Shown here in pieces: positions 11,749 to 26,446 of a DNA stretch of 64,000 nucleotides. The stretch covers positions 22,752 to 86,751 of IMG/VR virus record IMGVR_UViG_3300048921_000363, one strand, 5' to 3'. Numbering within the stretch: position 1 is the stretch's first letter; every line of letters begins with the position of its first letter. The notes beneath the pieces were generated by a model. It was not told the origin of the DNA. It did no database searches and was given only the letters and a program-made list of their open reading frames with translations. The position numbers and the translations under genes are program-made. Origin of the DNA: a virus.

Positions 11749-12351
11749 TCAGTCCGTTGTCATGGCGTGTTCAAGGTCGGCTGAAGAGAGGCGCTCGGCT
11801 TCTTCCAGCGTTCGACGGAAGGTGGCCGTCAGGTGTTTTTCGATCAGCCAGGGATCGGTCATAGCCGCGAGATCGTGGGACAGTTGCGGCAACGGGCCGA
11901 ACAACTGGTCGCGCAGCAAACGGCCGGCGTTGTAGGCACCGGTCTCGACCGCTTCCTTGGAGACCAGTGCGCCCTGGGCTTTGCCCAGCTCAATCTCGGC
12001 CAGCTTGGCCATGTTGTGTTCGCGCAGGGCGCGGGCTTTCTGGAAGTCGGGCAGCTTGCCGTCGCCGGTGATCACCTGCGGCGGCGCAGCCGTGGAAGTC
12101 GGCTCGACGGAAGTGGACAGTTGGCTGTACACGTCGCGCTGAATCCGGTCTTGTTGGTGTCGCTCGGCGACGGCGGCTTTGCTTGGGTCAGCGGTGTCGC
12201 GAATCAGCGCTTCGCTGGCCGGCACGTCCACCAGTTTTCCGTCCGGCGACAGCACCAGGCGGTTGTTGTTCTTCAACCAGGTGATGTAGCTCGGCGCCCT
12301 GCCGATCCGCGCCGCGAAGGCGCTTTTCGACAGGTAAGTTGGTTCTGTCAT
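11749..12351 (-). CDS. Terminase small subunit (Nu1-like)
   Basis: N-terminal HTH-like SKSAFAARIG, FQKARALRE...GALV; directly upstream of the large subunit. Confidence 0.85.
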   Translation of the reverse strand: MTEPTYLSKSAFAARIGRAPSYITWLKNNNRLVLSPDGKLVDVPASEALIRDTADPSKAAVAERHQQDRIQRDVYSQLSTSVEPTSTAAPPQVITGDGKLPDFQKARALREHNMAKLAEIELGKAQGALVSKEAVETGAYNAGRLLRDQLFGPLPQLSHDLAAMTDPWLIEKHLTATFRRTLEEAERLSSADLEHAMTTD

Positions 12352-12359
12352 AAGCCCTC

Positions 12360-12510
12360 CTTTCAACGGCTTTTCAATGCAGACCTTTAAATTTCAATGG
12401 ATTGAATTTCAGTAAGCTGGGGGCGCTCCCGCTAACACTTTCCCGCGGGTTTCCGACCCCGTGTCCTTCAGATACCCCTAGGGTCCCCGGCGGTTTTCGG
12501 CGCACCAGAT
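12360..12510. other. Putative cos/packaging region of prophage 1
   Basis: Non-coding gap upstream of the small terminase gene with repeated TTTCAA (12361, 12372, 12392) and a GC-rich CCCCTAGGG(T)CCCC element; position matches lambda cos. Confidence 0.45.
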
Positions 12511-12517
12511 CGGTGCA

Positions 12518-12862
12518 TCACCCCTGCTCGCCCCCGGCCGGCGGGACTTCGCAGACGCCCAGCCGTTTGGCGGCCCAGCGTTCGTACAACCCGATGGCCA
12601 CATCGGCACCGGCCATTGCCGTCAGGCAACCCAAGGCGCCCGCCGTCCAGATCGACATGCCAGCGGCGATCATCAACATCATCGCCGACACCCCGCAGAC
12701 AATGCAGGCCCCGGACCGAAGCGCGAGGCGGCGCATCAACGCCCAGCCCCGCGCCCCATCCTTGTCGGCCCGCCACATCTCCCCCGATACGCCGCCGACT
12801 AAAGCCAGGACGATCACTAACCAGATCGGCATCTCTGCCAGCGCTTGTTGCTCGTTTGTCAT
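12518..12862 (-). CDS. Phage holin
   Basis: 114 aa with about three hydrophobic segments; first gene of the late operon. Confidence 0.75.
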   Translation of the reverse strand: MTNEQQALAEMPIWLVIVLALVGGVSGEMWRADKDGARGWALMRRLALRSGACIVCGVSAMMLMIAAGMSIWTAGALGCLTAMAGADVAIGLYERWAAKRLGVCEVPPAGGEQG

Positions 12863-12879
12863 CGCCAACCCCTAAACGC

Positions 12880-12905
12880 AAAAACCCGGCGCAATGGCCG
12901 GGTTT
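12880..12905 (-). terminator. Intrinsic terminator in the late leader
   Basis: AAACCCGGC/GCCGGGTTT stem with a T-run just before the holin start. Confidence 0.65.
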
Positions 12906-13094
12906 GGTGGTGTGGTGTCTGCCGCTCTCTGCGGTCGCACCTATCGAAGATGACTACTTTTTACAGGTCGATTCCGGTGGCAGCAACCCCGGTTTAATGC
13001 CACCCGGCGAATAAGTGGGTAACACCGGGTGAACGCCTAGCGAATGTCGGCGAATATCCCACCCCGGCATTCTGCTGTTTCGGCGGCGCCCCAT

Positions 13095-13365
13095 CTGTCC
13101 CACCATTCAGAATCGAAGTGGGACGTCTGAGAGCGCCTAAATCAGGGGCTTTGCCCCACTGTCCTACTTATCTCTCTCCTTTCTCGTGTAAAGGAAGAAT
13201 CTTAAAGAACACGCGTGCGCGTGAAACGCGCGTATTGCTGCCCGCTACGCTTACACGGGCGGGAGTCACTTTGTAGCGGGACGGTGGGACAGCCCAACAA
13301 CGACAAGGCCAGCACCTGTCCCACTGCATCAAAATGCAGCGGGACAAGACGGGCCAGCGGGACAT
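13095..13365. repeat. G(T/C)GGGAC iteron cluster, putative replication origin of prophage 1
   Basis: GTCCCAC at 13097 and 13318; GTGGGAC at 13118 and 13284; GCGGGAC at 13276, 13339 and 13357; downstream of the primase-helicase operon. Confidence 0.55.
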
Positions 13366-13389
13366 CAACAGCCGGACGAACGCCTGGGA

Positions 13390-13764
13390 TCACGCAGCCA
13401 ACCCCATCATCACGCCGAAGATCTGCAGGTGGGCGTCATGCAGACGCTGGTAGTACGTATCGCGGCCGCAACCGCAGTGCGCGTACCGCAAGCGCATATC
13501 AATATCGAGCGTGCAGTAATGTTCCCGCACAACCGTCACCAGCTCGGGCGCTAGATGCTTGGTCACGATCAACTCGATGTCGAGGGAACTCTCCAGCGGC
13601 GCACGAAAGGCCCGCCGCCCACGGATCAGTTGCCCATTGCTCTCCATCATCATGGCAACCATGTTCCCCCCAGCAAGCCCCCCTTTCGAATGTTCAGAAT
13701 GCAGCTCCTGCGCCCACAACCGAAGCAGCGAATCGATCTCCTTAATCAAAGCAAGGCTCCTCAA
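13390..13764 (-). CDS. Hypothetical protein, possible Q-like late antiterminator
   Basis: Lies between replication and late genes; LRLWA N-terminus and HTH-like C-terminus; the late operon contains internal terminators; start uncertain. Confidence 0.5.
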   Translation of the reverse strand: MRSLALIKEIDSLLRLWAQELHSEHSKGGLAGGNMVAMMMESNGQLIRGRRAFRAPLESSLDIELIVTKHLAPELVTVVREHYCTLDIDMRLRYAHCGCGRDTYYQRLHDAHLQIFGVMMGLAA

Positions 13765-15958
13765 TCGGTTCCCGCTTCAACGCCGAAGCACTGCCCCACC
13801 CTGCTGGCTTCTTATAAGCCCACGGCCGCTGACCACTCTTCACCAACGGCGGCAACCGAACACGACGCCATCCCAAGCGATGCATGATCGCTCCGACGCG
13901 CATCTGCTCCGGCTTGCCCCAATGCCCGAAGTCCAACTTCAACGCACTAGTCAGCACTTCGCTGCCGGTGGTGGTCTCGCCAATCTGCGACTCTTCCAGC
14001 CAGGTCAGAATCGGCCCTTCCCACTCGTCTACCACAAAGCGCTCGTCCTGCTCTTCGCCGAACATCGCCGCTTCATCCAGCGTCACCCACCAGATGTCGC
14101 CCGCGTCGTAACAGAACACTGCTTCAGCCCAGAGCTGATCGCGGATCGAACGCAACAGCTCCAAATCCACCTTGGTACACGCCACCGGCCAGTACCGTCG
14201 GTTACCGGTCGCGTCCTTCAGGTACTCGTCCTGGTTCGTCGTCCCCACGAACACGCACTGACGCGGCACATCCATCGTGCGACGGCCGTAGCTCTCGCGG
14301 TAGGTATCGGTCGACGCCGAGAAAAACTGCTTGGCCTTGGTACTCTCGGCCTTGTTGAAGCTGTCCAGCTCGCCCAGCTCGACGATCCACTTGCCCCGGA
14401 TCGCCTGAAAGCCATCCTTGTCGCCCAGGGCGAACGGCGTATCCATAAACCATTCGCCGCCGAGGATGCTCATCGCCGTGGACTTACCGGCGCCCTGCGC
14501 ACCCTCAAGAATCATCACCGAGTCAGCCTTGCAGCCCGGCTTCATCACCCGTGCCACGCCCGACAACATCCAGCGCTTACCGACCTTGCTCGAGTAATCG
14601 GTAGCATTCACGCCCATGACATCCGTGAGCCAGCTTTCCAGGCGCGGCACGCGATCCCACTCAAGCTTGCGCAGGTACTGCCGCACCGGATGAAACGCGT
14701 GATCATGCGCGACCACGCTCACCGCCTCGATCACATGCGATGCCTTCACCCGCAAGTTGTACTGCTGCGCGAGCCACTTCATTACCCGCACATCATCGAT
14801 GTCCGCCCAATCGCCCGTGCCGCCGCCATACGGCGCCGCACGCAGCTTCACGATCTTCGAACTGAACGCGCTGTAACTGATCACACCGGCCCAGCGTTCA
14901 TCATTGGCTAGGATCAGCTCGACGTTCTGCATGTGCGCAATCAACGCACCGCTTTCACTTCGAGCCAGCATGTCCTTCCAGCCACCAGCGGCCGGCGGCT
15001 TGACCACGGCCAGCACCTGACGGCGCACAGCCTCCAAACCTTCGGCAACATGCAGGTCGTTGAAGTCGGTCCACTTGATCTCCCGCTCACCGGAAAAGAT
15101 CGGCGCGACCACCTGGCCACCGACGATCAGCGCCGCGTTGCTAGCCTTCTCCTCACCAGGGTTCCAGGCATCGCCGTTCGGCTTCGTGGTCTTCCAGTCA
15201 TCGTCCCGACAGATGATCAACGGGCAGCCGGCGAACCGCTCGCGCATCGCCTTGCAAACCACCAGCAGGTTACCGGCGTCAAACGCGATGGACACGGTCA
15301 GCGACGTCGCCATATGCAGGCTAGCGCCGGTGGCGTAGCCTTCACACACCAGCACCGGCTCACCCGGATCCGGATGCGGCCCGATCAGATGAAAGGCGCC
15401 CTCCTTCGACATCCCATAGGGCCAGTACGTCTTGTCGCGACCGGTGTCTTCTTGTTTGGTTGGGTACACCACCTGCAGGCCGACAATCTCGTCGCGCACG
15501 TTGCACATCGGCACCAGGAACGCACCGGTGCGCGGCGCATACCGAACACCAATACCGACGATCTGCTTACGATCCAGATAGTCGCTCCGGCCCTTCTCCG
15601 GCATGCGCTTGAACATGCCCGCCGCACGCTTGGCCGCACGACGCGCTGCACTGGCAGCGATCTCGGCAGCCCGGCGCTTTGCCTCTTCCTGCCGAGCGCG
15701 CATGACCTCACGCTCTTCCGGCGACATCCGCCCGGCCTTGACCTTGATCTTCTGCGATTCACCCGAACGCCAGTCACCGAACGCGCCGAAAATCAGCGTC
15801 TCACCTTTCTCGGTGCGGTGCTCGTGGACGATGTACCAGCCGTTCTTTTCCTTGCCCTTGTCCTGCGCTGTTTTGCACCGGGTCAGCTTGCCAAACACCA
15901 GCGGCTGCGCAGGCTCCAGACCGTAATCCGCGAATTGCCCCAACACTTCATCGAGCAT
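13742..15958 (-). CDS. Primase-helicase (Toprim plus VapE/VirE helicase)
   Basis: Toprim CEGYATG, DDD, TDFND; Walker A GAQGAGKS; GTTN...GNRRYWPV. Confidence 0.92.
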   Translation of the reverse strand: MLDEVLGQFADYGLEPAQPLVFGKLTRCKTAQDKGKEKNGWYIVHEHRTEKGETLIFGAFGDWRSGESQKIKVKAGRMSPEEREVMRARQEEAKRRAAEIAASAARRAAKRAAGMFKRMPEKGRSDYLDRKQIVGIGVRYAPRTGAFLVPMCNVRDEIVGLQVVYPTKQEDTGRDKTYWPYGMSKEGAFHLIGPHPDPGEPVLVCEGYATGASLHMATSLTVSIAFDAGNLLVVCKAMRERFAGCPLIICRDDDWKTTKPNGDAWNPGEEKASNAALIVGGQVVAPIFSGEREIKWTDFNDLHVAEGLEAVRRQVLAVVKPPAAGGWKDMLARSESGALIAHMQNVELILANDERWAGVISYSAFSSKIVKLRAAPYGGGTGDWADIDDVRVMKWLAQQYNLRVKASHVIEAVSVVAHDHAFHPVRQYLRKLEWDRVPRLESWLTDVMGVNATDYSSKVGKRWMLSGVARVMKPGCKADSVMILEGAQGAGKSTAMSILGGEWFMDTPFALGDKDGFQAIRGKWIVELGELDSFNKAESTKAKQFFSASTDTYRESYGRRTMDVPRQCVFVGTTNQDEYLKDATGNRRYWPVACTKVDLELLRSIRDQLWAEAVFCYDAGDIWWVTLDEAAMFGEEQDERFVVDEWEGPILTWLEESQIGETTTGSEVLTSALKLDFGHWGKPEQMRVGAIMHRLGWRRVRLPPLVKSGQRPWAYKKPAGWGSASALKREPIEEPCFD

Positions 15959-16178
15959 GGCGAGCCCCTCTCAATTCCACGAGAGAAAGGCACCCAACGC
16001 ACTGCGTGCAGCCGGGTTGCGCCAAGCGACGAGCCTCAGAGATCGGGTCATCACACGTTTCGCAAAACAGAAACGAATGCGCCGCCAAGGCAGGCTTGGC
16101 GGAGAGAAGGCGTGCAGCAAGCGCTTGATCGATACGCTCTTGCACCAGGTCATTAGCAAAGTCAGCAATGTCAGCCAC
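15948..16178 (-). CDS. TraR/DksA C4 zinc-finger protein
   Basis: ADIADFAND...CETCDDPISEARRLAQPGCTQCVGC; GTG start at 16178. Confidence 0.9.
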   Translation of the reverse strand: MADIADFANDLVQERIDQALAARLLSAKPALAAHSFLFCETCDDPISEARRLAQPGCTQCVGCLSLVELRGARHAR

Positions 16179-16689
16179 GATCAACACCCCGCGTTGTCTG
16201 GTTGACATACGTGGCGCGGTTGAACATCCCCAGCAGCCCCTGAATCCCACGAAACACCTGCAGACGAATCGCGGCGAGTTCCTCATCAGTAACGACACCG
16301 TCACCAATGCTCTTAGCCCAGGTATCCGCCAGATCTGCCACCTGCCGGAAGTAATCCGCAATGCCGGTGGTCAATGTCTCGGGCATGTCATTGGTGTACG
16401 CCTCAGCCAGCTCCTGCCAGGTCGTGTCACCGACCAACGCATGCACCGCATCCAAAATGCGGCGATCCTTGGTCAACTCCAGAATCTCGCCGAACTCTTG
16501 AATGTTCACCGTATGGCTAGGGTGGGTTGGGGAAAGTTTGTGCTGCAGAGTGGTCGCATTCCGGCCGGTGGTGGCGGCGATGGCAGCTGCACCGCCGGGG
16601 TAGTCCCGGGCGGCATGGTAAAGCGCAAGATCGAGCGGCAAAACTTCCCGCTGCGCCCGGTCTAGAGAGCTCAGAATGATACGGCTCAT
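16171..16689 (-). CDS. Phage regulatory protein, CII-like
   Basis: YPGGAAAIA...TLQHKLSP...DGVVTDEE; downstream of cro. Confidence 0.8.
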   Translation of the reverse strand: MSRIILSSLDRAQREVLPLDLALYHAARDYPGGAAAIAATTGRNATTLQHKLSPTHPSHTVNIQEFGEILELTKDRRILDAVHALVGDTTWQELAEAYTNDMPETLTTGIADYFRQVADLADTWAKSIGDGVVTDEELAAIRLQVFRGIQGLLGMFNRATYVNQTTRGVDRG

Positions 16690-16734
16690 GGCATTAATCC
16701 TTGTAAGTTGCCAGTGCCGCGCGACATGCAGTGG

Positions 16735-16743
16735 TGATACATT
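16735..16743 (+). promoter_or_regulatory. Extended -10 promoter candidate
   Basis: TGATACATT matches TGnTAnnnT, pointing into the cII-cro gap. Confidence 0.5.
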
Positions 16744-16749
16744 TGCCGC

Positions 16750-17016
16750 GTGGCTTGAAAGGGCCCAAACGCCGGCTAGATCTTCGGGATCGATACCGGC
16801 ACCGTGCCGGGGCGAACAATCCGTTGCTCACCCCTGGCGCAACAGCTGCCCAATCTGTGGTGGAAAAGGCAGCAACACCAAGGCTTCCGAGCCTTGGAAA
16901 AGCGCGATAACGGGAGGTAGTTGCATGTGGTGTGCCCGCCTACCTTTATCGCGACCCGACAGCGCTGTGGTGGTGCGTGCCGGGAGGAACTGGGCGGCCC
17001 TTGGGTCGCCTTTTTT
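16750..17016 (+). ncRNA. Candidate multi-hairpin small RNA with three UGUGGUG loops
   Basis: About six consecutive stem-loops between an extended -10 and an intrinsic terminator; TGTGGTG at 16856, 16926 and 16966, each in a loop. Confidence 0.6.
16993..17016 (+). terminator. Intrinsic terminator
   Basis: GGCGGCC-CTTG-GGTCGCC followed by TTTTTT; the G-U pair and T-run define the + strand. Confidence 0.75.
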
Positions 17017-17020
17017 CTAT

Positions 17021-17293
17021 CTACGCTGCAGCTTTCTGAGGAGCTGATGAGTTCAACAGCCAAGCAGCTTGAAAAGCATTGCCTTTCCGCTCTGCGGCAC
17101 TAGCCAAAAGCTCAGCGTATTTGGTTTCACCGGTGTAATCCGTTCGCGGCAGGCATCCAGCCTGACGCCATTTGTTCAGAGCTTGATAGCTTCGATTGCA
17201 TATTTTGGCGGCGGCCCCAATGCCACCTACTGCTTCAAAGGCATACGCAATCGCGCTCGGAAAATCTGCGGGGTCCAACATGACAGCCTCCAT
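17021..17293 (-). CDS. Cro-like HTH regulator
   Basis: GGIGAAAKICNRSYQALNKW HTH; divergent from the repressor. Confidence 0.85.
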   Translation of the reverse strand: MEAVMLDPADFPSAIAYAFEAVGGIGAAAKICNRSYQALNKWRQAGCLPRTDYTGETKYAELLASAAERKGNAFQAAWLLNSSAPQKAAA

Positions 17294-17295
17294 TT

Positions 17296-17369
17296 ATCAA
17301 CTTACGGTTGATGTTATAGATCAACTGACTATTGCGCAACCTTTATGAGACTCTCAACTCATGGTTGAT
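17296..17369. promoter_or_regulatory. OR-like operators (ATCAAC-N5-GTTGAT)
   Basis: ATCAACTTACGGTTGAT 17296-17312; degenerate copy 17320-17336; CTCAACTCATGGTTGAT 17353-17369 spanning the cI start codon. Confidence 0.75.
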
Positions 17370-18092
17370 AAAAATTCTCTCCGCGCAGCTTTCAGCGAGC
17401 GCCTACACGAAGCTCTCGACGATTCCGACGTACGCAGCCGGGGTCGTGGAGTGGACATCCATCGACAGTTGAAAAGCATGGGAGTTGAGAAAACCACTCA
17501 AGCAATCAGCAAATGGCTAAACGGTGAGGCAATCGCAGAGGCCGACAGCATGTCCGCGCTTTGCTCTTGGTTGAAGGTTCGGCGCGAGTGGCTGGAGTAC
17601 GGAGTACTACCAAAACACCAGTCTGAAGAGAGCAATGTCCACAGGATAACCGCCGATGACAGAAGCAATGTAAGCGAGGTCAATCAGCGTTTTGGCAAGG
17701 TCCCGTTGATTTCGTGGGTCCAGGCAGGCGCGTGGTGTGAAGCGATTTCAAATTTTGAATCTTACGATGCGGATTCTTGGCTGTCTTGCCCTGTCCAGAT
17801 AAGCAGTCATGGGTATGCGTTGAAAGTCCTTGGTGACTCAATGACGAACCCCGGTTCGGGTCGTAGTTATCCAGCTGGATGCATAATCTTTGTTGATCCA
17901 GAGGCCGAAACTAGAACCGGGGACCGTGTGATTGCAAGTCTACCAAGAACCAATGAAGCAACATTTAAGGTCCTAGTAGAAGATGCCGGCTTTCAATATC
18001 TAAAACCGATAAATCCGCAGTATCCGATAATTGAAATTACGGAAGAGACACATATCTGCGGGAAAGTTGTCGGTGCTTTCATTCCGGAGTAA
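17361..18092 (+). CDS. CI-like repressor with S24 peptidase domain
   Basis: HTH TTQAISKWLNG; cleavage site VQAG; catalytic GDSM and TFK. Confidence 0.95.
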   Translation: MVDKNSLRAAFSERLHEALDDSDVRSRGRGVDIHRQLKSMGVEKTTQAISKWLNGEAIAEADSMSALCSWLKVRREWLEYGVLPKHQSEESNVHRITADDRSNVSEVNQRFGKVPLISWVQAGAWCEAISNFESYDADSWLSCPVQISSHGYALKVLGDSMTNPGSGRSYPAGCIIFVDPEAETRTGDRVIASLPRTNEATFKVLVEDAGFQYLKPINPQYPIIEITEETHICGKVVGAFIPE

Positions 18093-18096
18093 CTAT

Positions 18097-19896
18097 CTAA
18101 AGCTTTACACCATACATATTCTCAACCCTAATAGAGTTGAGTTTATTCTCACCCCCAACTTTCTTTAAAGCATCCACTACTGCGTGACTAATCGCCGCAT
18201 AGAGCTCCGCATCATCCGAATTTGTAGTCGATATATTTCGAAAAGAGAGCAACCCACTTCTAATCTTTGTAGTTATATTTTCGGGAGATGAGCGCATCCA
18301 CTGTACATAGTCATCTACAGTCAAGGTTGCGAGATATGCCACATCCTCCGGACTCCAAGACCGTTCAGTTGCGATCCGCCATGAGATATCATCAATATTA
18401 TAATTCTTACCCGACTTACCCGCCTCAATGACTTTTGACCGTAGCGATGCATTCTTAACGCGTTCCAAGGTCCAAGAAGACATGATGGCATCATCCTTGA
18501 AACTATCATAATGAATGGATATGTAATCATCTATATATGCGTTAACGGATTCACCCATTTCCTCCAACATCTCAATAGCAGAGGAAAAGTCAGATAATGA
18601 AATGCTTTTCAGCTCTCTATCAAGGATACTTTTAAGCTCAGACTTAAACTTCTCGGCGTCATCCCCAAAAGAATCATGGTAAATCTTCCACGCACTCTTT
18701 AGTTCAGCGTCAACATTACTCTTACGATAATGCTCTTCGACCTCTTTAAATACCCGTAAGACCGAGAGTTCATCAACATACCCACACTCTAGATAATTTC
18801 CGATTAGAGAGTCAAACTTTGATTCAGACATTTGCAGATCAATGTTTATGTTTTTGAATGCCAACTGACCTTCAGTCAAGCTTTCCGCACTTGCGGATAG
18901 GTACTTTGCCCATGACCCGCCTACTAAGCTGCTCCGAAGATCTGCATATTTTATAAAACTACTGCCCAGATAATAGGATGAACACAATACCGCCGCATGC
19001 AAATAAAACTCGCAAACCAAGCCATCCTCTTTATCTTTGAGAAATGAAGCATGCGCATGCAATAAAGCTCTTAATTTACGGAGTACCCTTACGTTCTTTA
19101 CACCTATCCTAAGCACCACCGACTTCAAATATTCAACTTGATTTAATTCGGTTGTAAAGACATGAGAAAAGTTTGTGTCGCAAGACGGGTTATATAACAA
19201 CTCAGCGTCAACTACTTTTTCCCGGTACGACTCAAACTGTTCTAAGTCTTTGCTGTCTTTATCAAAAGATTTTTCATTAAAAATCAGTACAACCTTACAT
19301 GACTTGCGTTGAGCCAATTCATCTGCCAGCCCCATCAACTCTTTGATGCTTAGCGAACTTCCCTTCCGCTCTATATCATCAAAACAAACGACGTAGTTAT
19401 TTACCACACTGTATTCAACACTGGACAACAGGCTAGAAAACTTGTCAAGCACCGGAATTTTTTTTGCCGTACCACTGATCCAACCCAGCCAGGGCAGCTT
19501 ATTTTTTGCAAACTGGAGAGTAGACTTAACTTTTGGAAACTTTGAATAAAGCGTATTAGATTTTTCCAGCTCTATTTCAAATGAACGGATAACCGCATCA
19601 TCAGAAGCGATAGCTCTTCCACTTTGAAATACACTAGCCTTAATATCTGCGAGAGAATTCTTTCCAAACAGGGAAACATAGCTATATGCAATTTGCTTCA
19701 GATCTTTTTTCTGGATTCGGCTGTTTATATATTCTTCCCAGAAAAAAGTTTTTCCGACACCCCAATCTCCCCTTATTACTACAACTCCAGAGTTCGACTC
19801 GAAAAAGACATCAAAAGATTTTTTCAAATACTCCATATTCTCAAAGTCCTTTTTTCTGTGAATAGACCGCATCATATCAATGAGCCACACCTTCAT
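18097..19896 (-). CDS. KAP-family P-loop NTPase (AT-rich moron)
   Basis: Walker A GDWGVGKT, YVSLFG, Walker B CFDDIER, YREKVVD; start uncertain. Confidence 0.85.
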   Translation of the reverse strand: MKVWLIDMMRSIHRKKDFENMEYLKKSFDVFFESNSGVVVIRGDWGVGKTFFWEEYINSRIQKKDLKQIAYSYVSLFGKNSLADIKASVFQSGRAIASDDAVIRSFEIELEKSNTLYSKFPKVKSTLQFAKNKLPWLGWISGTAKKIPVLDKFSSLLSSVEYSVVNNYVVCFDDIERKGSSLSIKELMGLADELAQRKSCKVVLIFNEKSFDKDSKDLEQFESYREKVVDAELLYNPSCDTNFSHVFTTELNQVEYLKSVVLRIGVKNVRVLRKLRALLHAHASFLKDKEDGLVCEFYLHAAVLCSSYYLGSSFIKYADLRSSLVGGSWAKYLSASAESLTEGQLAFKNINIDLQMSESKFDSLIGNYLECGYVDELSVLRVFKEVEEHYRKSNVDAELKSAWKIYHDSFGDDAEKFKSELKSILDRELKSISLSDFSSAIEMLEEMGESVNAYIDDYISIHYDSFKDDAIMSSWTLERVKNASLRSKVIEAGKSGKNYNIDDISWRIATERSWSPEDVAYLATLTVDDYVQWMRSSPENITTKIRSGLLSFRNISTTNSDDAELYAAISHAVVDALKKVGGENKLNSIRVENMYGVKL

Positions 19897-19925
19897 CGCA
19901 AGCCTTTCACGATGCAGTCGTAATA

Positions 19926-19969
19926 ATCAACCATGGGTTGTTGACAAAAAACAACCACTGGTTGATATT
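19926..19969 (+). promoter_or_regulatory. OL-like operators and pL-like promoter
   Basis: ATCAACCATGGGTTGTT 19926-19942; AACAACCACTGGTTGAT 19950-19966; TTGACA 19941-19946, 17-bp spacer, GATATT 19964-19969. Confidence 0.8.
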
Positions 19970-20004
19970 CATCTCACTCTTCCACCACAGAGCGAGGCAA
20001 TACC

Positions 20005-20181
20005 ATGCACACCACAGCAACCCTGCACGTCCACCCGGCCGCTGCTGACCCCTTCCGAATCTTCGAGATCCGCCGCCTAGCCCGCGAGTGCGGCTGCGCG
20101 TTTGTCACCACCAAACTGAAGCAGCAAACGCGCACAGCCCCCGCCCCATTCGACCCGAACGGCGGAGGGCATGCTGCATGA
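20005..20181 (+). CDS. Small hypothetical protein, first gene of the pL-like operon
   Basis: Not in the ORF track; GAGG RBS; MHTTATLHVHPAAADPFRIFEIRRLARECGC...GHAA; ATGA overlap with the next gene. Confidence 0.7.
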   Translation: MHTTATLHVHPAAADPFRIFEIRRLARECGCAFVTTKLKQQTRTAPAPFDPNGGGHAA

Positions 20182-20768
20182 TCAAGTACAGAATCGACAA
20201 CCGCACCCTGCAGTTGCTGAACGCCCAGGTCAACCTGACCGAGACCTTCAACCACGTCCTCCGGACAGCGCCCAAGCGTGAATGCCTGGCGTTCCGTCTC
20301 AAGGTCGAACGAGGCACAACAGAGAGCACCTTCGTCGTCGAGCTGGGCAGCGAACGCCACACGCTGACCCTGCAGAACGACAAGAAAACGCACCTCAAGC
20401 TGGCCGACTTTATCGAAGAGATTGCCAACGGCCCATTCGACGCGAGCAACACCAGCGACCTGGTGCACCGCCCGCATGCCAGTCGCAAATACGGCCGCTT
20501 CGAAGTCTCCGACAAACAACGCGTATTCGAGCTGGTACGCACCGGCGGCGTGCTGAGCCTCGACATGGGCTTCGACTCCCCCCTGCAGGTCGCGCTGCAC
20601 CGCACCCAATCACGCTCGGGTGTCACTACCATCCTGAGCATCGGCAACACAAACCCGCACACCCGGTGCTTCACCGTATACGGCACCGATGTCGAGATCT
20701 ACGGCAAGGTCACCGAGTCCATCAACCACCTCGCTGCAGCGGCCACCCCAGCCGCGCACGCGGCATGA
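20178..20768 (+). CDS. Hypothetical phage protein
   Basis: MIKYRIDNRT...; translationally coupled, phage-like codon usage. Confidence 0.75.
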   Translation: MIKYRIDNRTLQLLNAQVNLTETFNHVLRTAPKRECLAFRLKVERGTTESTFVVELGSERHTLTLQNDKKTHLKLADFIEEIANGPFDASNTSDLVHRPHASRKYGRFEVSDKQRVFELVRTGGVLSLDMGFDSPLQVALHRTQSRSGVTTILSIGNTNPHTRCFTVYGTDVEIYGKVTESINHLAAAATPAAHAA

Positions 20769-20778
20769 GGGGGACGCT

Positions 20779-21063
20779 ATGGAACGTACCCTCGCCCAAG
20801 CCGCAACCAAACTCGGCCTCACTCGGCCAAAACTCATCGCTCGCATGCGGGAAAAAGGTCTGCTCAACGAGAAGAACCTACCGGCCTACCCCAACCGTGA
20901 CCGCGATTACCTGCGCATCAATAACGGTCAGTGGTACCACGACCAGTTCGGCATGCAGTACAGCCAGTCGACCAGGGTGAAACAACCCGGCATCCGCTGG
21001 CTGGCCGAACAGTTGGGCATCGACCTGCCTGCCATCCCGGCAGACAGCCGTGACGTGGCCTAG
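20779..21063 (+). CDS. Antirepressor KilAC-domain-like protein
   Basis: AATKLGLTRPKLIARMREKGLL...NLP...TRVKQPGIRWL pattern. Confidence 0.7.
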   Translation: MERTLAQAATKLGLTRPKLIARMREKGLLNEKNLPAYPNRDRDYLRINNGQWYHDQFGMQYSQSTRVKQPGIRWLAEQLGIDLPAIPADSRDVA

Positions 21064-21229
21064 GAAATACGCCCGCCAGATCATCGCCATGCGGACACGA
21101 GAGGAGCGCAACGCCGCGCTCCTGGAAGTGCCCGAACATCTGCGCGAGCTGACCAGAACCCACTGCCTGAACGCCTGGAACCACCCGGCCCGAAAACAAC
21201 GCAAGGAGGCCCAACAGAGCCATGAGTAA
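21050..21229 (+). CDS. Small hypothetical protein
   Basis: Hand translation from GTG: TWPRKYARQIIAMRTREERNAALLEVPEHLRELTRTH...; fills the operon gap. Confidence 0.55.
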   Translation: MTWPRKYARQIIAMRTREERNAALLEVPEHLRELTRTHCLNAWNHPARKQRKEAQQSHE

Positions 21230-21539
21230 CACAGCACAAAACCCGCTGCGCCTGCACCCGGCACCGGAGTCAGCCACCGTCGAACTGCTCTACCGCATCT
21301 TCGGCGACGTCCTGATCCCGCTCGACAAAGTGCGCGAACAGTACTTCCGCAACCTCAACGAGCAATCGTTCGTGGCCGAGATCAGCAGCGGCCGTATCCA
21401 GCTGCCCATCACCACGCTGGACACCAGCCGCAAGGCACCCAAGTACGCCCACATCCGGCACGTCGCCTCACTGATCGACATCCGCGCCTACAAGGCCGAC
21501 GAAGACATGCAGCGGCAGCAGGAAGAAACAAACGAGTAA
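21222..21539 (+). CDS. Pyocin activator PrtN-family protein
   Basis: LLYRIFGDVLIPLDKVREQYF...IQLPI...SRKA...HIRHVASLID. Confidence 0.8.
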   Translation: MSNTAQNPLRLHPAPESATVELLYRIFGDVLIPLDKVREQYFRNLNEQSFVAEISSGRIQLPITTLDTSRKAPKYAHIRHVASLIDIRAYKADEDMQRQQEETNE

Positions 21540-21595
21540 CCCCAAAACCGAACGGCTGCAACCACCAGCCAATGACATCACCAGGAGCACACCAC

Positions 21596-22075
21596 ATGAC
21601 AGAAGTTCAGATCTACGCACTGATAGCAATCATCCTAATGATTGCCGCCATCTGCTGGCTCGCCTACCGGAATGGCTACAGCAACGGCCATGCCGATGGC
21701 CAATCACAAGGCTACAGCGAAGGCTATGACGTCGGCGGCTGCGTTGGGTATCGCGATGGCGTCGACGAGGGGAAAGCGATTCAGCGCTCTGACGACTCGG
21801 TGGAGATCCGCAACCTGACGCACTCCCTCGAACAGGCTCAAGAACACCGCAAGAAACTGTTCGCACATTACGAACGCGCCTTGTCGGCATCGAAGCTCGG
21901 AGAGCCTGCACGCCAGACCCTACTGGAAATCGCCGAAAAACTGCGCATCGCTTCCGAAACATTCGCCGCCTTCCGCACCGGAAAAAAACTCGAACGCGAC
22001 ACACGCACCCTTCGCGACCAGGCACTCGCCATAGCAGCCCTGCTGGAACCAGCAGACCAGGAGAGGGCCGCATGA
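21596..22075 (+). CDS. Membrane-anchored hypothetical protein with GxxxG repeats
   Basis: AGGAG RBS; N-terminal TM segment followed by GYSNGHADGQSQGYSEGYDVGGCVGYRDG. Confidence 0.75.
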   Translation: MTEVQIYALIAIILMIAAICWLAYRNGYSNGHADGQSQGYSEGYDVGGCVGYRDGVDEGKAIQRSDDSVEIRNLTHSLEQAQEHRKKLFAHYERALSASKLGEPARQTLLEIAEKLRIASETFAAFRTGKKLERDTRTLRDQALAIAALLEPADQERAA

Positions 22076-22680
22076 GCCAGACCTGCCCCCAATCCAAAAC
22101 CCACCGCAACCCGGCCTACACCCAAGTAGCGGCAGATGAACCAACGCGCAATCGAACTTCGGAGGAAAGCGGCATGCAAAAGGACCAGAACGACAACCAA
22201 CCCACGACCGCTTTGCTCCGCAAGGAAACCAGCGTCGACGCATTAGAAACAAGCAGCCTCTGCTGCGCAGCAGCAGGCATTATTGCATCTTCCAGCAGCA
22301 CCGCTGAGGCACTTATACCCCACGAAAAGCTGCGCGAGGCAGCCACACCCAATGCAACGCTAACCGCTCAAAATCGCCCGCCCGCGCAGCTTGCTGTGGG
22401 GTATCCGCCCCCTGACAGCAACTCTGATAGTCCATCACAAGAAGCCGTCGACGAAGTGCAGATCGACGAGCGCGTCGAGTTCGAGAAAGAGTTCCCGATC
22501 CCTGAGGGCCTGAAGCACTGCGCCCAGCGAGGCACCTACATCACCGCACCAGGTACGGAGACATCCGACTCTTTCGCCCGTGAGCATTACGCGTACCGGG
22601 CCGGCTTCGTAGCATGGAAGCGCAGAGCCTGGAAGCACGCCGCACTCGTTGGCCAACAAGCCGAAGGAGTCCGCACGTGA
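22072..22680 (+). CDS. Hypothetical phage protein
   Basis: ATGA/GTGA overlaps with both neighbours. Confidence 0.65.
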   Translation: MSQTCPQSKTHRNPAYTQVAADEPTRNRTSEESGMQKDQNDNQPTTALLRKETSVDALETSSLCCAAAGIIASSSSTAEALIPHEKLREAATPNATLTAQNRPPAQLAVGYPPPDSNSDSPSQEAVDEVQIDERVEFEKEFPIPEGLKHCAQRGTYITAPGTETSDSFAREHYAYRAGFVAWKRRAWKHAALVGQQAEGVRT

Positions 22681-24668
22681 TCAAGCGCACTTTCAAACAC
22701 TTCCACATGTGCTGCGGGCTGGGCAGTGGTGCCGCAGGTTTTAGTGACTCCAAGCCTGCATTGGGTTCAGTACAAGCCGAATGGCGATGCTTGGGCGGTG
22801 TTGACGTCGACTCTGCTGGACTACGCGACTTTCAAATGATGACTGGCGTGCCAGGGACGTTGATGGATCTGTTTACCCGCGAGCAGTTCACTGCATTCCA
22901 CGGTCAGGAACCGCCGTCTCACTGGAAAGAGGCCACCGCTGAAGATCTGCGCCGCGCTGCCGGCAACGAAGATCCGGACGCCGTGTTCATAAGCAGTCCG
23001 TGCAAAGGCGCCTCGGGGTTGTTGTCCGAGACGATGAGTCAGACGCCAAAGTACCAAGCCCTGAACGAACTGACGCTCCGCTGCGTGTGGCTGATGTGTG
23101 AGGCATGGAAGCATAACCCCGTCTCGCTGATCATCTTCGAGAACGTGCCACGCTTGGCCACTCGCGGCCGACACCTTCTAGATCAGATCAACAAGCTGCT
23201 CAGTTTCTATGGATACGCGGTCGCTGAAACCACCCACGACTGCGGTGAGATCGGTGGCCTGGCACAGAGCCGCAAGCGGTTCTTGCTGGTCGCAAGGCAC
23301 GTCGAGAAAGTCCCAGCGTTCCTTTATCAGCCTGAAAAACGCAGCCTGCGAGCCGTCGGCGATGTGCTCAGCCGCATGCCGCTGGCGGGAGACATCGAAC
23401 AGGCCGGACCGATGCATCGTGTGCCGGCACTGCAATGGAAGACATGGGTTCGACTGGCACTGGTAGAGGCCGGCAAAGATTGGCGCAGCCTTAGCCGATT
23501 CGCGATAGAGGATGGCCATCTACGCGACTTCGTGATCGTGCCCGAATATCGCGCCGGCTATCTGGGAATAAACACCTGGACCGAAAACGCCGGCACCGTA
23601 GCCGGCAGATCCACACCTACCAATGGCAAGTTCTCAGTCGCCGACCCAAGGCCTACCAGCAAATTCGAATACACCCAATACGGCGTGCTGCCCTTCGATC
23701 GCCACTGCGGCGTCGTAACAGGGCAGCGAAGCCCAGGGCAAGGCACATTCAGCGTGGCCGACCCACGCATGACCGGTGGAAGTCACACCAATGTATTCCG
23801 CGTGATTAACAACGATCAAGCCGCTGGCACCGTAACCACCAGTCACGGTCCGAGCTCCGGTGGACAGGCAGTGGCAGACCCTCGACAGCCAACCAAGGGC
23901 TTCGGCAAATACCTAGTAACTGACTACACCAAACCAGCAGGCACCGTCATCGCCGGGAGCACCACCGGGCAAGGCGCTTTTGCCGTAGCAGATCCTGCTT
24001 ACAAGAACTGGCATAAAGGCGCCAGCACCCAAAAGTTACGCGTCACGCCATGGGGCAAATCAGCCAGGACAGTGACCGGCTCGCAGCAGGTCGCCAGCGG
24101 TGCCCTCTCTATCGCGGACCCACGCCCAGGCATGTCTCGCAGCAAAGGCGACGCATACCTCACCGGTGGGCATTACGGCGTGGTCGATTGGAAAGATCCA
24201 GCCGGCGCCGTATCCGCCAGTGCATGCCATGACAATGGCAGATGGTCCGTTGCAGACCATCGAATGCCAGCCGCCAATGACCGACTCACCTGCATGATCG
24301 CCAGCCTCGACGGTACCTGGCATCGGCCTTTTACAACGCTGGAACTGGCCGCGCTGCAGTCGTTGTTTGATCCAGAGGAACATTGGTCTACTGATGCGCA
24401 GACAGTTCGTGACATTCAGATGATGCAGCACGCCCGCAAGATCGAGAACGCGAGGTTCTTTCAACTGGACGGTATCAACGATGGCAGCCATCGCGAACGC
24501 ATCGGCAACGCAGTGCCGCGTGCGGCAGCAAAAGCCATGGCCGACGTGTTCGGTATGACACTGCTACTGTCAGACGCTGGCGAGACGTTCATGCTCAGCA
24601 ACGTATCAATCTGGGTTCAGCCGGTAGCCGTTGCCCTAAGCGCTTCCATTCGGGAGGTTCAGGCATGA
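22677..24668 (+). CDS. DNA cytosine-5 methyltransferase with six internal ADPR-type repeats
   Basis: Motif I CCGLGSG, IV SSPCKG, VI ENV, VIII QSRKR, X RIGNAV; AAGGAG RBS before GTG. Confidence 0.88.
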   Translation: MIKRTFKHFHMCCGLGSGAAGFSDSKPALGSVQAEWRCLGGVDVDSAGLRDFQMMTGVPGTLMDLFTREQFTAFHGQEPPSHWKEATAEDLRRAAGNEDPDAVFISSPCKGASGLLSETMSQTPKYQALNELTLRCVWLMCEAWKHNPVSLIIFENVPRLATRGRHLLDQINKLLSFYGYAVAETTHDCGEIGGLAQSRKRFLLVARHVEKVPAFLYQPEKRSLRAVGDVLSRMPLAGDIEQAGPMHRVPALQWKTWVRLALVEAGKDWRSLSRFAIEDGHLRDFVIVPEYRAGYLGINTWTENAGTVAGRSTPTNGKFSVADPRPTSKFEYTQYGVLPFDRHCGVVTGQRSPGQGTFSVADPRMTGGSHTNVFRVINNDQAAGTVTTSHGPSSGGQAVADPRQPTKGFGKYLVTDYTKPAGTVIAGSTTGQGAFAVADPAYKNWHKGASTQKLRVTPWGKSARTVTGSQQVASGALSIADPRPGMSRSKGDAYLTGGHYGVVDWKDPAGAVSASACHDNGRWSVADHRMPAANDRLTCMIASLDGTWHRPFTTLELAALQSLFDPEEHWSTDAQTVRDIQMMQHARKIENARFFQLDGINDGSHRERIGNAVPRAAAKAMADVFGMTLLLSDAGETFMLSNVSIWVQPVAVALSASIREVQA

Positions 24669-24934
24669 ACACTTTGTTCTTACTCATGGCTCAATACGAC
24701 GGACAGGCAGTTATCCCACTTGATCGCGTCTGCGCGGATTACATGCATTTAACAGTGGAAAAATTTAAGCGCAAACAACTAGATGGCGAAATAGATATAC
24801 CCGTTGTTCGCTTGGGCGCTAACAGTCAAAAGGCAGCGTTAGGAATTCACCTTAAGGATCTGGCGGACTACATAGATAGACAAAGGGAAAAAGCAGCCAA
24901 AGAGCAAAATTTACTAATGGGCCGTGCTGCATGA
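24665..24934 (+). CDS. PrtN-family DNA-binding protein (possible excisionase)
   Basis: MNTLFLLMAQYDGQAVIPL..VC.DY...SQKA...HLKDLADYID; next to the integrase. Confidence 0.8.
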   Translation: MNTLFLLMAQYDGQAVIPLDRVCADYMHLTVEKFKRKQLDGEIDIPVVRLGANSQKAALGIHLKDLADYIDRQREKAAKEQNLLMGRAA

Positions 24935-24960
24935 AAAAAGGGGCTGACGCCCCTTTTTTT
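24934..24960. terminator. Bidirectional intrinsic terminator
   Basis: AAAAAAGGGGC-TGAC-GCCCCTTTTTTT between convergent genes. Confidence 0.85.
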
Positions 24961-25270
24961 AAAGTTTGAATTCTTTCAACTCGCCCAAATTGTCTTTGAC
25001 CTGACCATTACGGTCGGTCGAAAGAAAACTCTCTCCGACCACATGAATACGCTCCCCACCGTTCCACACTTTCGTATCTGTATTCCACACAGCAGTTCGA
25101 AAATTCGCGGTTTCCGTCGTAATCAAATTCGCAACGAACTCTCTGCTGCTGACCATAGCGGCCCCGACTGTCAACTCAGCGCGATTCCGATGGCGCACAT
25201 GCACATGGGTAATGTGGGATTTTTTTTCATCGTATCGAACTGCGGTTACATAATAATCCGTCATTTCCAT
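24959..25270 (-). CDS. DUF3892-like protein (moron)
   Basis: YYVTAVRY...ITHV...FLSTDRNGQVKDNLGEL pattern; AT-rich. Confidence 0.7.
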   Translation of the reverse strand: MEMTDYYVTAVRYDEKKSHITHVHVRHRNRAELTVGAAMVSSREFVANLITTETANFRTAVWNTDTKVWNGGERIHVVGESFLSTDRNGQVKDNLGELKEFKL

Positions 25271-25327
25271 TCCCTAAATTTAAGAACAACACGGCGATTT
25301 GATAGTAGTGGCGATGTAAAATCAACC

Positions 25328-26446
25328 CTAAGTGCCATCACCTATCAATTCCCTAAATTCATTTAACCTCAGCATCCACAACCAGCCACTATACCGATCT
25401 CCTCGCCCGCGGAGATGCGTATACCTCCGCAGCGAGTTCCAGTCCCGGTGTCCTGAGACACTAGACACTCTAGGAATGTCCCAGTCCATTTCGAAAAGCC
25501 GGCTAACCCCCTCGTGTCTAAGGTCATGGAAGTGTAAATCCTCAATACCAAGCATCGGGCACGCCCGCGTGAAAGCAGCCGAAACCGACCTAGCGTTGTA
25601 AGGGAAGATCTCCCGCTCGACCTTGGGCATGCTCTGCAGAATGGCCCAAGCCTCATCAGGCAGATAACACCACACATCATTACCAATCTTTTGCCCGGGG
25701 TTCTTCATATCGCGCACCAGGACCGACTGCCGAGACTCATCGAGATCATCCCAACGGATACGCGTAATTTCCTCCTGTCGGCGCGTCGAAAAAAGCGCAA
25801 AGGCGATCACCTTCGGCATGTCGATCTGAGCTTTACGACGTTCCTGCATTTCGAAGAAATGCGCCATGAGCTTGTCCAGCTCATCAAGCGTCGGCCGGCG
25901 ATTACGCTCTCTGCTCTTGCTCACCATACCTAGCTTGCGCAACACCTTCCTGGCATCAGACATGGCCAGCGGATCCACCTCATAGCCCCAAGCTGGACGC
26001 GCCACAGACAACACCGCCCCCAAGTGTGAGAGATCATTTCCGACCGTTTGCGCCTGAACGCCGCCGCCCTCTTTACTCATCCGCCATTGTGCGAACTCCA
26101 CCAGCTTCTGGCTGGTCAGAGCCGAGTCCTCAAGGTCGCCCAGCCAAGTATGCTTGATCGCTTTCAAGGTGGCGTTCTTGGTCTTGCCCAGCGGCCGGAT
26201 TTTCTCGTACTCGTCCAGGTACTGCTCGATCATCTTCCTGATCGTCACACCCTTACGGTTTGCGCGCTCAATCGCACCAGGCTCAGCCAGCTCCGTCTCA
26301 CGCCGTTTGATCCAAGCCTGGGCGACCTGCTTTCGGTCGAAGGTTTGGCTTTCCTGATAAACTGAGCGCCCGTCCCGATTGATCCGTATCTGCGCTGTGT
26401 AGGCCGTAGAGTTGTCCTTGCGCTTGCGTGATGTGATCGTGCCCAT
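25328..26446 (-). CDS. int: Tyrosine integrase, dusA-associated type
   Basis: STRR, DMKNP, HFHDLRH, SGH, LRRY catalytic residues; adjacent to a dusA fragment. Confidence 0.95.
   Translation of the reverse strand: MGTITSRKRKDNSTAYTAQIRINRDGRSVYQESQTFDRKQVAQAWIKRRETELAEPGAIERANRKGVTIRKMIEQYLDEYEKIRPLGKTKNATLKAIKHTWLGDLEDSALTSQKLVEFAQWRMSKEGGGVQAQTVGNDLSHLGAVLSVARPAWGYEVDPLAMSDARKVLRKLGMVSKSRERNRRPTLDELDKLMAHFFEMQERRKAQIDMPKVIAFALFSTRRQEEITRIRWDDLDESRQSVLVRDMKNPGQKIGNDVWCYLPDEAWAILQSMPKVEREIFPYNARSVSAAFTRACPMLGIEDLHFHDLRHEGVSRLFEMDWDIPRVSSVSGHRDWNSLRRYTHLRGRGDRYSGWLWMLRLNEFRELIGDGT

Follow-up and report, generated by a model that had tools for sequence, protein, structure and literature searches.

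The stretch analysed here (hereafter the window) comprises 64,000 nt of viral DNA from IMG/VR record IMGVR_UViG_3300048921_000363 (positions 22,752 to 86,751 of that record) and contains a cII gene, a cro-like gene and a cI-like gene as well as an early-left operon. The 331-nt gap between cro and cII very likely encodes a conserved, previously undescribed multi-hairpin small RNA (sRNA) whose loops show co-evolution with the ribosome-binding regions of early-left genes. The genes and features around this gap are as follows.

16171–16689, − strand: cII gene, Phage_CP76 family (Pfam PF06892, E 4.4e-21)
16690–17020: cro-cII gap, 331 nt, non-coding
17021–17293, − strand: cro-like repressor gene, in the exchangeable immunity cassette (phrog_35, transcriptional repressor, E 2.2e-06)
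17361–18092, + strand: cI-like repressor with S24 peptidase (PF00717, E 3.2e-24)
18097–19896, − strand: KAP NTPase, inside the cro-cI-operator cassette in this window
19941–19969, + strand: pL-like promoter TTGACA-17-GATATT with operators on both flanks (10/12 consensus matches)
20005–20181, + strand: first early-left gene, 58 aa (phrog_35204), ATGA-coupled to a 196-aa gene
21596–22075, + strand: membrane-protein gene, 159 aa (phrog_28176)

Divergent operators were found between the cro-like gene and the cI gene. The early-left operon (+ strand) includes the 58-aa gene, the coupled 196-aa gene, a gene similar to the KilAC/Ant C-terminus, an excisionase gene, and the gene for the 159-aa membrane protein. 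The pR transcript crosses the gap on the − strand; an RNA transcribed from the + strand of the gap is thus antisense to the pR transcript.

Related loci were collected by searching viral contigs with the cII protein, which returned 498 and 462 related stretches (80 kept each time), and by searching species-representative genomes for the pattern of the loop 1 hairpin (described below), which returned 58 stretches. Fifty-seven of these 58 were from Pseudomonas (fluorescens and syringae groups); the remaining one was a chance match within a Verrucomicrobia coding region and was rejected. The gap presented 86–98% identity to the window in 70 viral loci and 76–95% identity in the 57 Pseudomonas species genomes; overall, it is conserved (76–98%) across about 200 Pseudomonas prophage loci. 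The module consisting of cII and the gap (16110–17019) was intact in 57 of the 58 genome loci, and the gap was always inherited with cII. In 26 of the 57 genome loci, similarity ended 2–3 nt past the T run of the terminator, i.e., 5 nt before the cro stop codon, and a different cro starts there. A distant blastn search of phage isolate genomes returned no match to the element, which, in the collections searched, has so far been met only in prophages and viral contigs. A reading of the gap as small open reading frames was ruled out, as the frames are not conserved (the window's open reading frames across the gap are open and in frame in 33, 75, 41 and 4 of 150 distinct sequences); this includes a 34-codon − strand frame starting at an AUG within loop 2. 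A search for tRNA and tmRNA genes found none.

The recombination boundaries on both sides of the cassette are sharp, at ~16110 and 17019 for the module of cII and the putative RNA and at the start of the pL transcript (19973–19981) for the early-left module; the length of the cro-cI-operator cassette ranges from 1.1 to 4.7 kb in relatives. Cro-side sequences fell into 22 clusters among 170 loci, and the pL promoter and operator sequences vary among loci (at least three operator types), with similarity resuming at the transcript start.

The following features were predicted for the + strand of the gap.

16735–16743, + strand: candidate extended −10, TGaTACATT, with a predicted start near 16750
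16750–17016, + strand: predicted primary sRNA of ~267 nt, its ends and strand placed from the promoter-like motif and the terminator
16752–16765, + strand: 5′ hairpin with a GAAA loop (helix 1, 5 pairs, 100% of alignment cells paired)
16771–16800, + strand: helix around a small variable hairpin at 16779–16791 (helices 2 and 3)
16804–16840, + strand: hairpin Hb (helix 4, 14 pairs, 4 of them changed on both sides, e.g., GC 37 / AU 27)
16845–16873, + strand: hairpin H1 with the 17-nt loop 1 (helix 5; pairing core TCTGTGGTGGAA at 16854–16865)
16878–16897, + strand: hairpin H2 with a UCCG loop (helix 6; pair 196:202 is UA in 53 and AU in 14)
16903–16953, + strand: long hairpin H3 with the apical loop 2 (helices 7–9, 6 pairs changed on both sides)
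16955–16984, + strand: hairpin H4 with loop 3, CUGUGGUGGUG (helix 10, 99.5% of cells paired)
16992–17011 plus T6, to 17016, + strand: intrinsic terminator with an 8-bp stem; T6 conserved

The candidate extended −10 follows the pattern TGnTACAnT; across 150 distinct sequences the specified bases (TG, TACA and the final T) show little or no variation, whereas the position following TG can be A, G or T. In a diverged lineage designated type III, the motif reads TGGTACAGT or TGATACAGT and keeps its spacing to the start of cII, though the surrounding sequence differs. The terminator presented G·U pairing in 165 cells on the + strand vs. 0 on the − strand. Its pair 311:321 is GU in 41, AU in 24 and GC in 3 sequences and, because it is formed through G·U, pairs on the + strand only. 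From the promoter-like motif and the terminator we infer the + strand and the ends of the RNA.

The local helices comprise 75 pairs in 11 helices, with 98.5% of cells paired (68 distinct sequences), indicating that the hairpins of the gap are real. Pair counts were taken from local helices instead of an RNAalifold run on 150 sequences, which gave spurious long-range pairs. Changes on both sides were found in 16 of the 75 pairs, as compared to 8.7 ± 1.4 in shuffles (none of 500 reached 16) and 1–8 in slid-partner controls. Pair 91:101 (helices 2–3), for example, is AU in 59 and GC in 9 sequences, H4 shows a GC to AU change at pairs 274:293 and 278:288, and one group of loci (L140) has lost the inner hairpin at 16779–16791 (a deletion of 15 nt) and retained the outer CCGG/CCGG pairing. 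While the stems vary, the loop cores are invariant (150 sequences): in loop 1, TCTGTGGT, G and A do not vary, and in loop 2 the motif UGUGGUG (16926–16932) is closed by GCA/UGC, with a pairing segment at 16919–16935.

Three sites at the start regions of early-left genes are complementary to these loops.

19973–19997, + strand: hairpin at the 5′ end of the early-left mRNA, CUCACUCU-UCCACCAC-AGAGCGAG (fold −7.6 kcal/mol)
19980–19991, + strand: site 1, in the loop and 3′ arm of this leader hairpin
20007–20021, + strand: site 2, codons 2–6 of the 58-aa gene
21587–21598, + strand: site 3, Shine-Dalgarno (SD) spacer and AUG of the 159-aa membrane-protein gene

An earlier interpretation made from the letters of the window (hereafter the sequence-only reading) had proposed that the gap holds an extended −10, several hairpins and a + strand terminator, and that three loops repeating UGUGGUG pair with the early-left operon. 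Each of these elements was recovered in our analysis, and all coordinates given in that reading proved correct. The motif UGUGGUG (CACCACA on the − strand) is found at 16856–16862, 16926–16932 and 16966–16972; loop 1 (TCTGTGGTGGAA, 16854–16865) is the exact reverse complement of 19980–19991, and loop 2 (CATGTGGTGTGC, 16924–16935) is that of 21587–21598. The segment 16919–16935 also pairs with 20007–20021 with one bulged A (−26.3 kcal/mol), and loop 3 pairs with CCACCACAG at 19982–19990 (−21.2 kcal/mol). Site 1 is followed directly by the SD sequence GAGG; the stem of the leader hairpin presented compensatory changes in three loci (L055, L064 and L065), and the core of site 1, ACCACAGAGCGAGG, hardly varies (identical over 24 nt in 66 of 96). 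Relative to the respective start codons, the sites span −25 to −14 (site 1), +3 to +17 (site 2) and −9 to +3 (site 3), which places the targets within the ribosome footprint. A duplex scan that included the stems was swamped by GC-rich spurious duplexes and was uninformative; when the scan was rerun with loop-only oligos, covering both strands at all 42,408 window positions, loop 1 had its best duplex at site 1 (−22.0 kcal/mol, next −19.8).

Loop–target covariation, proposed as a check in the sequence-only reading, was found for loop 2 and site 3, which occur in three matched alleles. Allele I combines loop 2 CATGTGGTGTGC with site 3 GCACACCACATG (110 distinct loci), allele II combines CATTTGGTTTGC with GCAAACCAAATG (14 distinct loci, plus one with an extra loop change), and allele III combines CATGTGGTTTGC with GCAAACCACATG (7 distinct loci). 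These classes contain 131 concordant distinct loci, and no cross-type combination was observed; in a further 50 loci no site 3 was found, 46 of them with under 5 kb of sequence available downstream. Alleles I and II have identical loops 1 and 3 and an identical site 1 core, and site 2 tracks the first of the two changes (ATGCACACC becomes ATGCAAACC). Two exceptions are compatible with wobble pairing, a C-to-U change in the site of locus L063 (G·U) and an A-to-G change in that of L138 (U·G). Pattern scans for more loop 2 alleles, which omitted combinations with A or C at the first and T at the second position, returned 154 stretches, including 15 real relatives; the others were chance 14-base matches. 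Single substitutions in sites 1 and 3 were also tested for wobble compatibility; the result, five of six interior changes being C-to-U or A-to-G, was given no weight since every transition in a site made up of C and A is of that kind.

A matched change was also found for loop 1 and site 1 in part of the type III loci. In this lineage, the 5′ half of the RNA has diverged, loop 1 is CUCUGUGGUAG and there is an additional CCGUGGUGGG loop; site 1 is CUACCACAGAG, the exact complement of this loop 1, in 4 of 11 loci. The type III RNA (L354 5699–6030 and 11 similar loci) adjoins a different CII-like gene (169 aa), has four GUGGU-type loops rather than three, and folds well below shuffled controls (z = −3.41). 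Its first early-left gene is followed by one for a 272-aa protein, which by eye, and from its N-terminus only, we would guess to be Bro-N/KilAC-like.

Cro-side clusters 2, 3, 4 and 6 are each common to different loop 2 alleles, indicating that the cassette has been exchanged while the RNA and target arms on its two sides stayed matched. This pattern supports, short of proof, a functional linkage of the two arms.

Contigs covering the gap were also found in two soil metatranscriptomes. In X5, four short contigs within 16796–16900 had a depth of 25000 each, with flanking depths of 975.6 over cII (16180–16825) and 567.1 over cro-cI, and in X14 contigs over 16821–16973 had depths of 276–469 vs. 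22–38 in the flanks. Gap contigs showed 12–100x the depth of flanking contigs, with the high-depth part at ~16796–16973, a comparison to be read with the caution that contigs carry neither strand nor ends, that contig depth cannot rank gene parts, and that collapsed conserved k-mers from relatives with flanks below the 88% threshold may inflate the depth of the core. The parts of low depth (left of 16796 and right of 16973) are not readable as RNA ends. With these limits, the depth pattern is a hint of a discrete, very abundant RNA. The shares of 0.2–0.34 of words found in 24 runs were not used for expression or habitat, as they may reflect the conserved part of relatives.

Two further features of these contigs concern the extent of transcripts. 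Contigs of both X5 and X14 join 16904 directly to 16981, skipping 76 nt that include H3 and most of H4 (and with them loops 2 and 3), and may represent a natural short RNA variant with loop 1 only. In addition, the first 24 nt of a 670-nt contig of X5 are Illumina adapter, fused to window sequence at 16180, a point 9 nt within the 3′ end of cII; this suggests that many fragments end there and, possibly, a discrete RNA end near the cII stop.

Several points weigh against a + strand RNA that pairs in trans with the early-left operon. No −35 match was found, and a consensus promoter scan did not list the extended −10 site. The helices are predicted on both strands, with G·U cells leaning to the − strand (39 vs. 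13), and consensus fold energies are close (−119.1 for + and −113.1 for −), indicating that the copy on the − strand, carried by the pR mRNA, is structured too; similar energies are expected if mirror-image hairpins in the pR mRNA matter as well, and the strand call by G·U vs. A·C counts and by consensus fold energy is ambiguous outside the terminator. Exact complementary 12-mers between the 267-nt RNA and the 64-kb window number 4 vs. 2.6 expected (200 shuffles), two of the four are at irrelevant places, and 70% of shuffles yield at least two; because these counts are at chance level, the matches alone are not significant and were dropped as evidence. CACCACA itself occurs 14 times in the window vs. 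9.4 expected (11 of 100 shuffles reach 14). In the loop-only scan, the best duplex of loop 2 was that with site 3 by a margin of just 0.1 kcal/mol, and loop 3 has no top-ranked target, as site 1 in the pL leader is outside its top 10 duplexes. Site 2 is variable and poorly conserved in relatives, locus L159 carries a G-to-A change in loop 2 with site 3 unchanged (an A·C mismatch), and one site 3 variant has an A-to-T change that is incompatible with wobble. The alleles are clades and thus represent about two or three evolutionary events rather than 131 independent ones, and double crossover in conserved flanks could keep the two arms together without selection. The limits of the contig depths given above weigh in the same direction. 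What exceeds chance is the placement of the matches in loops and start regions and, above all, the covariation in relatives. On balance, we consider it probable, though well short of certain, that a + strand sRNA of ~220–267 nt pairs in trans with the start regions of the early-left mRNA.

It is unlikely that this + strand RNA acts purely locally, i.e., as a cis-antisense RNA to the cro-cII mRNA (similar to OOP) or as the terminated leader or attenuator of a CII-activated establishment transcript directed towards cI, with no regulatory role for the pL matches. Its position makes the RNA a perfect complement of the pR mRNA spacer, cII belongs to an activator family (CP76), and the terminator might serve as an attenuator; moreover, the promoter-like motif lies ~49 nt from the cII start and is directed towards cro and cI, a position corresponding to that of lambda pRE. 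However, an exclusively local role leaves unexplained the three matched alleles of loop 2 and site 3 across an exchangeable cassette of 1.1–4.7 kb, the loop 1/site 1 match in type III loci, and the invariance of the loops against variable stems. A cis role can also be compatible with a role in trans.

The sequence-only reading had itself raised the alternative that CACCACA is a nut-like site in cis, in which case the − strand would be functional in the pR transcript and the boxes, like nut or put elements, would be read by one factor (e.g., an antiterminator). Its observation that the motif is found in the same sense after pL and after cro stands, i.e., CACCACA is sense in both early transcripts and just outside the cassette on each side, as are nutL and nutR. 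The pL copy is within a hairpin loop, the G·U counts in shared helices lean to the − strand as given above, and a third CA-rich box, conserved in aligned loci, precedes a − strand terminator at ~12880–12930. Since the loops read on the − strand are identical to the pL sites, covariation alone fits both sense boxes and antisense pairing. The boxes do not, however, change together: loop 2 and site 3 have three alleles, and the first two of these share the same loops 1 and 3 and the same site 1, which a single protein does not explain. Pairing is also favoured by identities of 12–16 nt with loop-specific flanks, by the location of site 3 at an internal SD-AUG instead of in a leader, and by differing hairpin geometries (loops of 7, 9 and 17 nt in the gap vs. 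8 nt in the leader). A simple consensus scan of 16000–20300, which may miss weak sites, did not list any terminator for the − strand of the gap. The first pL protein could not be placed in a known family, and its N-terminus is not arginine-rich; sense boxes would also leave the conserved + strand terminator unexplained. The only simple reader of allele-specific 12-mers is a complementary nucleic acid, which is what the + strand RNA of the gap, with its promoter-like motif and terminator, would be. We therefore regard sense boxes as quite improbable.

Still less probable is a protein sponge, i.e., an abundant RNA that titrates an RNA-binding protein which also binds the motif at early-left start regions. 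The repetition of the motif in three to four loops and the high apparent abundance would be consistent with this explanation, but UGUGGUG matches neither the GGA motif nor A-rich CA boxes, the Rfam search (E up to 10) returned no family, the Rsm and Crc sponges included, the + strand loops are complementary and not identical to the mRNA sites, and the allele-specific covariation of a single loop speaks against one protein specificity. That the gap has no dedicated function and is kept as cII 5′ untranslated region or recombination-boundary sequence, with matches due to chance or duplication leftovers, fits the chance-level number of raw 12-mer matches and the constant co-inheritance with cII but is hardly credible given the covariation of the structure, a terminator specific to the + strand, invariant loops next to variable stems, and three matched alleles with no mismatched combination.

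An Rfam cmscan of 12000–26000 on both strands (E up to 10) returned no match in the gap, in line with the novelty put forward in the sequence-only reading, and three unrelated sub-threshold hits. One region outside the gap (24871–25040, + strand) showed weak similarity to the Rfam Pseudomonadales-1 RNA (18.3 bits vs. a gathering score of 68, E 1.3), which is probably due to chance. A literature search by topic and by loop and site strings found no paper on the element within its coverage, which excludes supplements such as possible lists of Pseudomonas sRNAs; string matches were to unrelated primers and sequences.

To our knowledge, antisense RNA control of temperate phages is represented by a few enterobacterial models (c4, CI, CA, OOP, sar), in which the RNA is encoded within or next to the operon that it controls. 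By comparison with these, the RNA predicted here would resemble c4, CI, CA and OOP in function and fits neither the c4 nor the OOP type. The c4 RNA of P1/P7, CI of P4 and CA of N15 (RF01695) are ~70–90 nt long and are cut from the leader of the operon that they control. Like the putative gap RNA, they are phage antisense RNAs with hairpin loops complementary to sites at or near the ribosome-binding regions of their targets, and they provide an RNA layer beside or in place of a protein repressor, with lytic or antirepressor operons as targets. In contrast, the gap RNA would be ~220–267 nt long with its own promoter-like motif and terminator, is encoded beyond the cassette from its targets, at a distance of 1.1–4.7 kb, runs antisense to the pR transcript, and does not match the RF01695 covariance model. 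OOP of lambda is a 77-nt RNA that overlaps the 3′ end of cII, to whose message it is antisense; it is not known to have trans targets. Both OOP and the predicted gap RNA are short RNAs against the pR operon beside cII that end at an intrinsic terminator, whereas the gap RNA lies upstream of the cII start codon and has several hairpins and co-varying trans sites in the pL operon.

Similarities to other classes of RNA elements were also considered. Lambda nutL/nutR and HK022 putL/putR are cis-acting, with a single conserved structure that works on RNA polymerase; like them, the elements described here form a pair that flanks the immunity region from outside, one directly past pL and the other directly past cro. 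Unlike them, the gap elements vary in geometry, one pair changes allele alone, one site is an internal SD-AUG, and the conserved terminator is on the opposite strand. Among sponge sRNAs, RsmY and RsmZ titrate RsmA, and CrcZ titrates Hfq/Crc. RNAIII of S. aureus, a 514-nt effector of quorum sensing, is encoded in the chromosome, and its C-rich loops pair with SD sequences. RNAIII is a multi-hairpin RNA with several loops that carry a common short motif and bind several mRNA start regions, sometimes two distant regions of one mRNA (PMC2837412), features that would be shared with the gap RNA. The gap RNA is unrelated to RNAIII in sequence and context.

On the cII side of the gap, the window also carries two neighbouring genes and a further conserved element.

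12880–12960, − strand: conserved element in the intergenic space that separates the replication genes from the following gene block
13742–15958, − strand: VapE-type primase
15948–16361, − strand: DksA/TraR zinc-finger gene

The element at 12880–12960 was aligned in 188 related loci and consists of a hairpin (CCGC-AGAGA-GCGG), a CA-rich run (CACCACACCACCAAA) and a strong − strand terminator (CCCGGCC-ATTG-CGCCGGG-TTTTT). It looks like a terminated late-operon leader, similar to pR′-tR′. The CA run presented small indels among loci and offers 7–8 nt of possible pairing to loop 2 (−16.7 kcal/mol) and loop 3 (−18.5 kcal/mol) of the gap RNA.

If the + strand RNA pairs in trans as proposed, transcription would run rightwards from the conserved extended −10, starting at ~16750 and ending at the terminator at 17016, and the RNA may be trimmed to a stable core beginning near 16796. 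Loop 1 (and, less well, loop 3) would kiss the loop of the leader hairpin just ahead of the SD sequence of the first gene, while loop 2 would cover codons 2–6 of the first gene as well as the SD spacer and AUG of the 159-aa gene. Such pairing would block ribosome binding and translation initiation, probably destabilise the mRNA, and lower early-left expression; with its full complementarity to the cro-cII spacer of the pR mRNA, the RNA would have to act there as a cis-antisense RNA as well. It may be a constitutive product in lysogens, or its promoter may depend on CII and fire during establishment, and a possible role is to dampen leaky or incoming early-left expression in lysogens, including that of heteroimmune relatives with the same leader. 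While repression and this role are what we infer, the co-evolution of loops and start regions suggests an RNA layer in the lysis–lysogeny switch. The sequence-only reading had likewise proposed that this RNA silences the early-left operon as a second layer of immunity. A link to the operon is upheld by the complementarity to start regions and by the covariation of loop 2 with site 3 and of loop 1 with site 1; immunity-specificity is not, as the RNA and its targets lie outside the cassette and are common to phages with different operators, so that the RNA is not immunity-specific in the classical sense.

More tentatively, it is possible that the sRNA and its target sites form a specificity pair that brackets the cassette (at least three alleles), with an abundant RNA as a second control of lytic genes and as a system of cross-immunity or incompatibility at the RNA level. 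If so, the RNA, possibly fired from a CII-dependent promoter, would be among the most abundant phage transcripts in soil Pseudomonas and, because of its location outside the immunity cassette, would act on superinfecting heteroimmune relatives that carry the same allele. The natural alleles resemble ready-made compensatory mutants. In contrast to the enterobacterial models, a much larger, multi-loop RNA in the classic nutR/tR1 position appears to target the other early operon, on the far side of the immunity region. If confirmed, it would represent a new regulatory RNA family, absent from Rfam and widespread in prophages of soil- and plant-associated Pseudomonas (57 species genomes), would explain why cassette recombination boundaries fall exactly at the RNA terminator and the pL transcript start, and would provide a testable model of RNA-defined specificity groups that are independent of repressor immunity.

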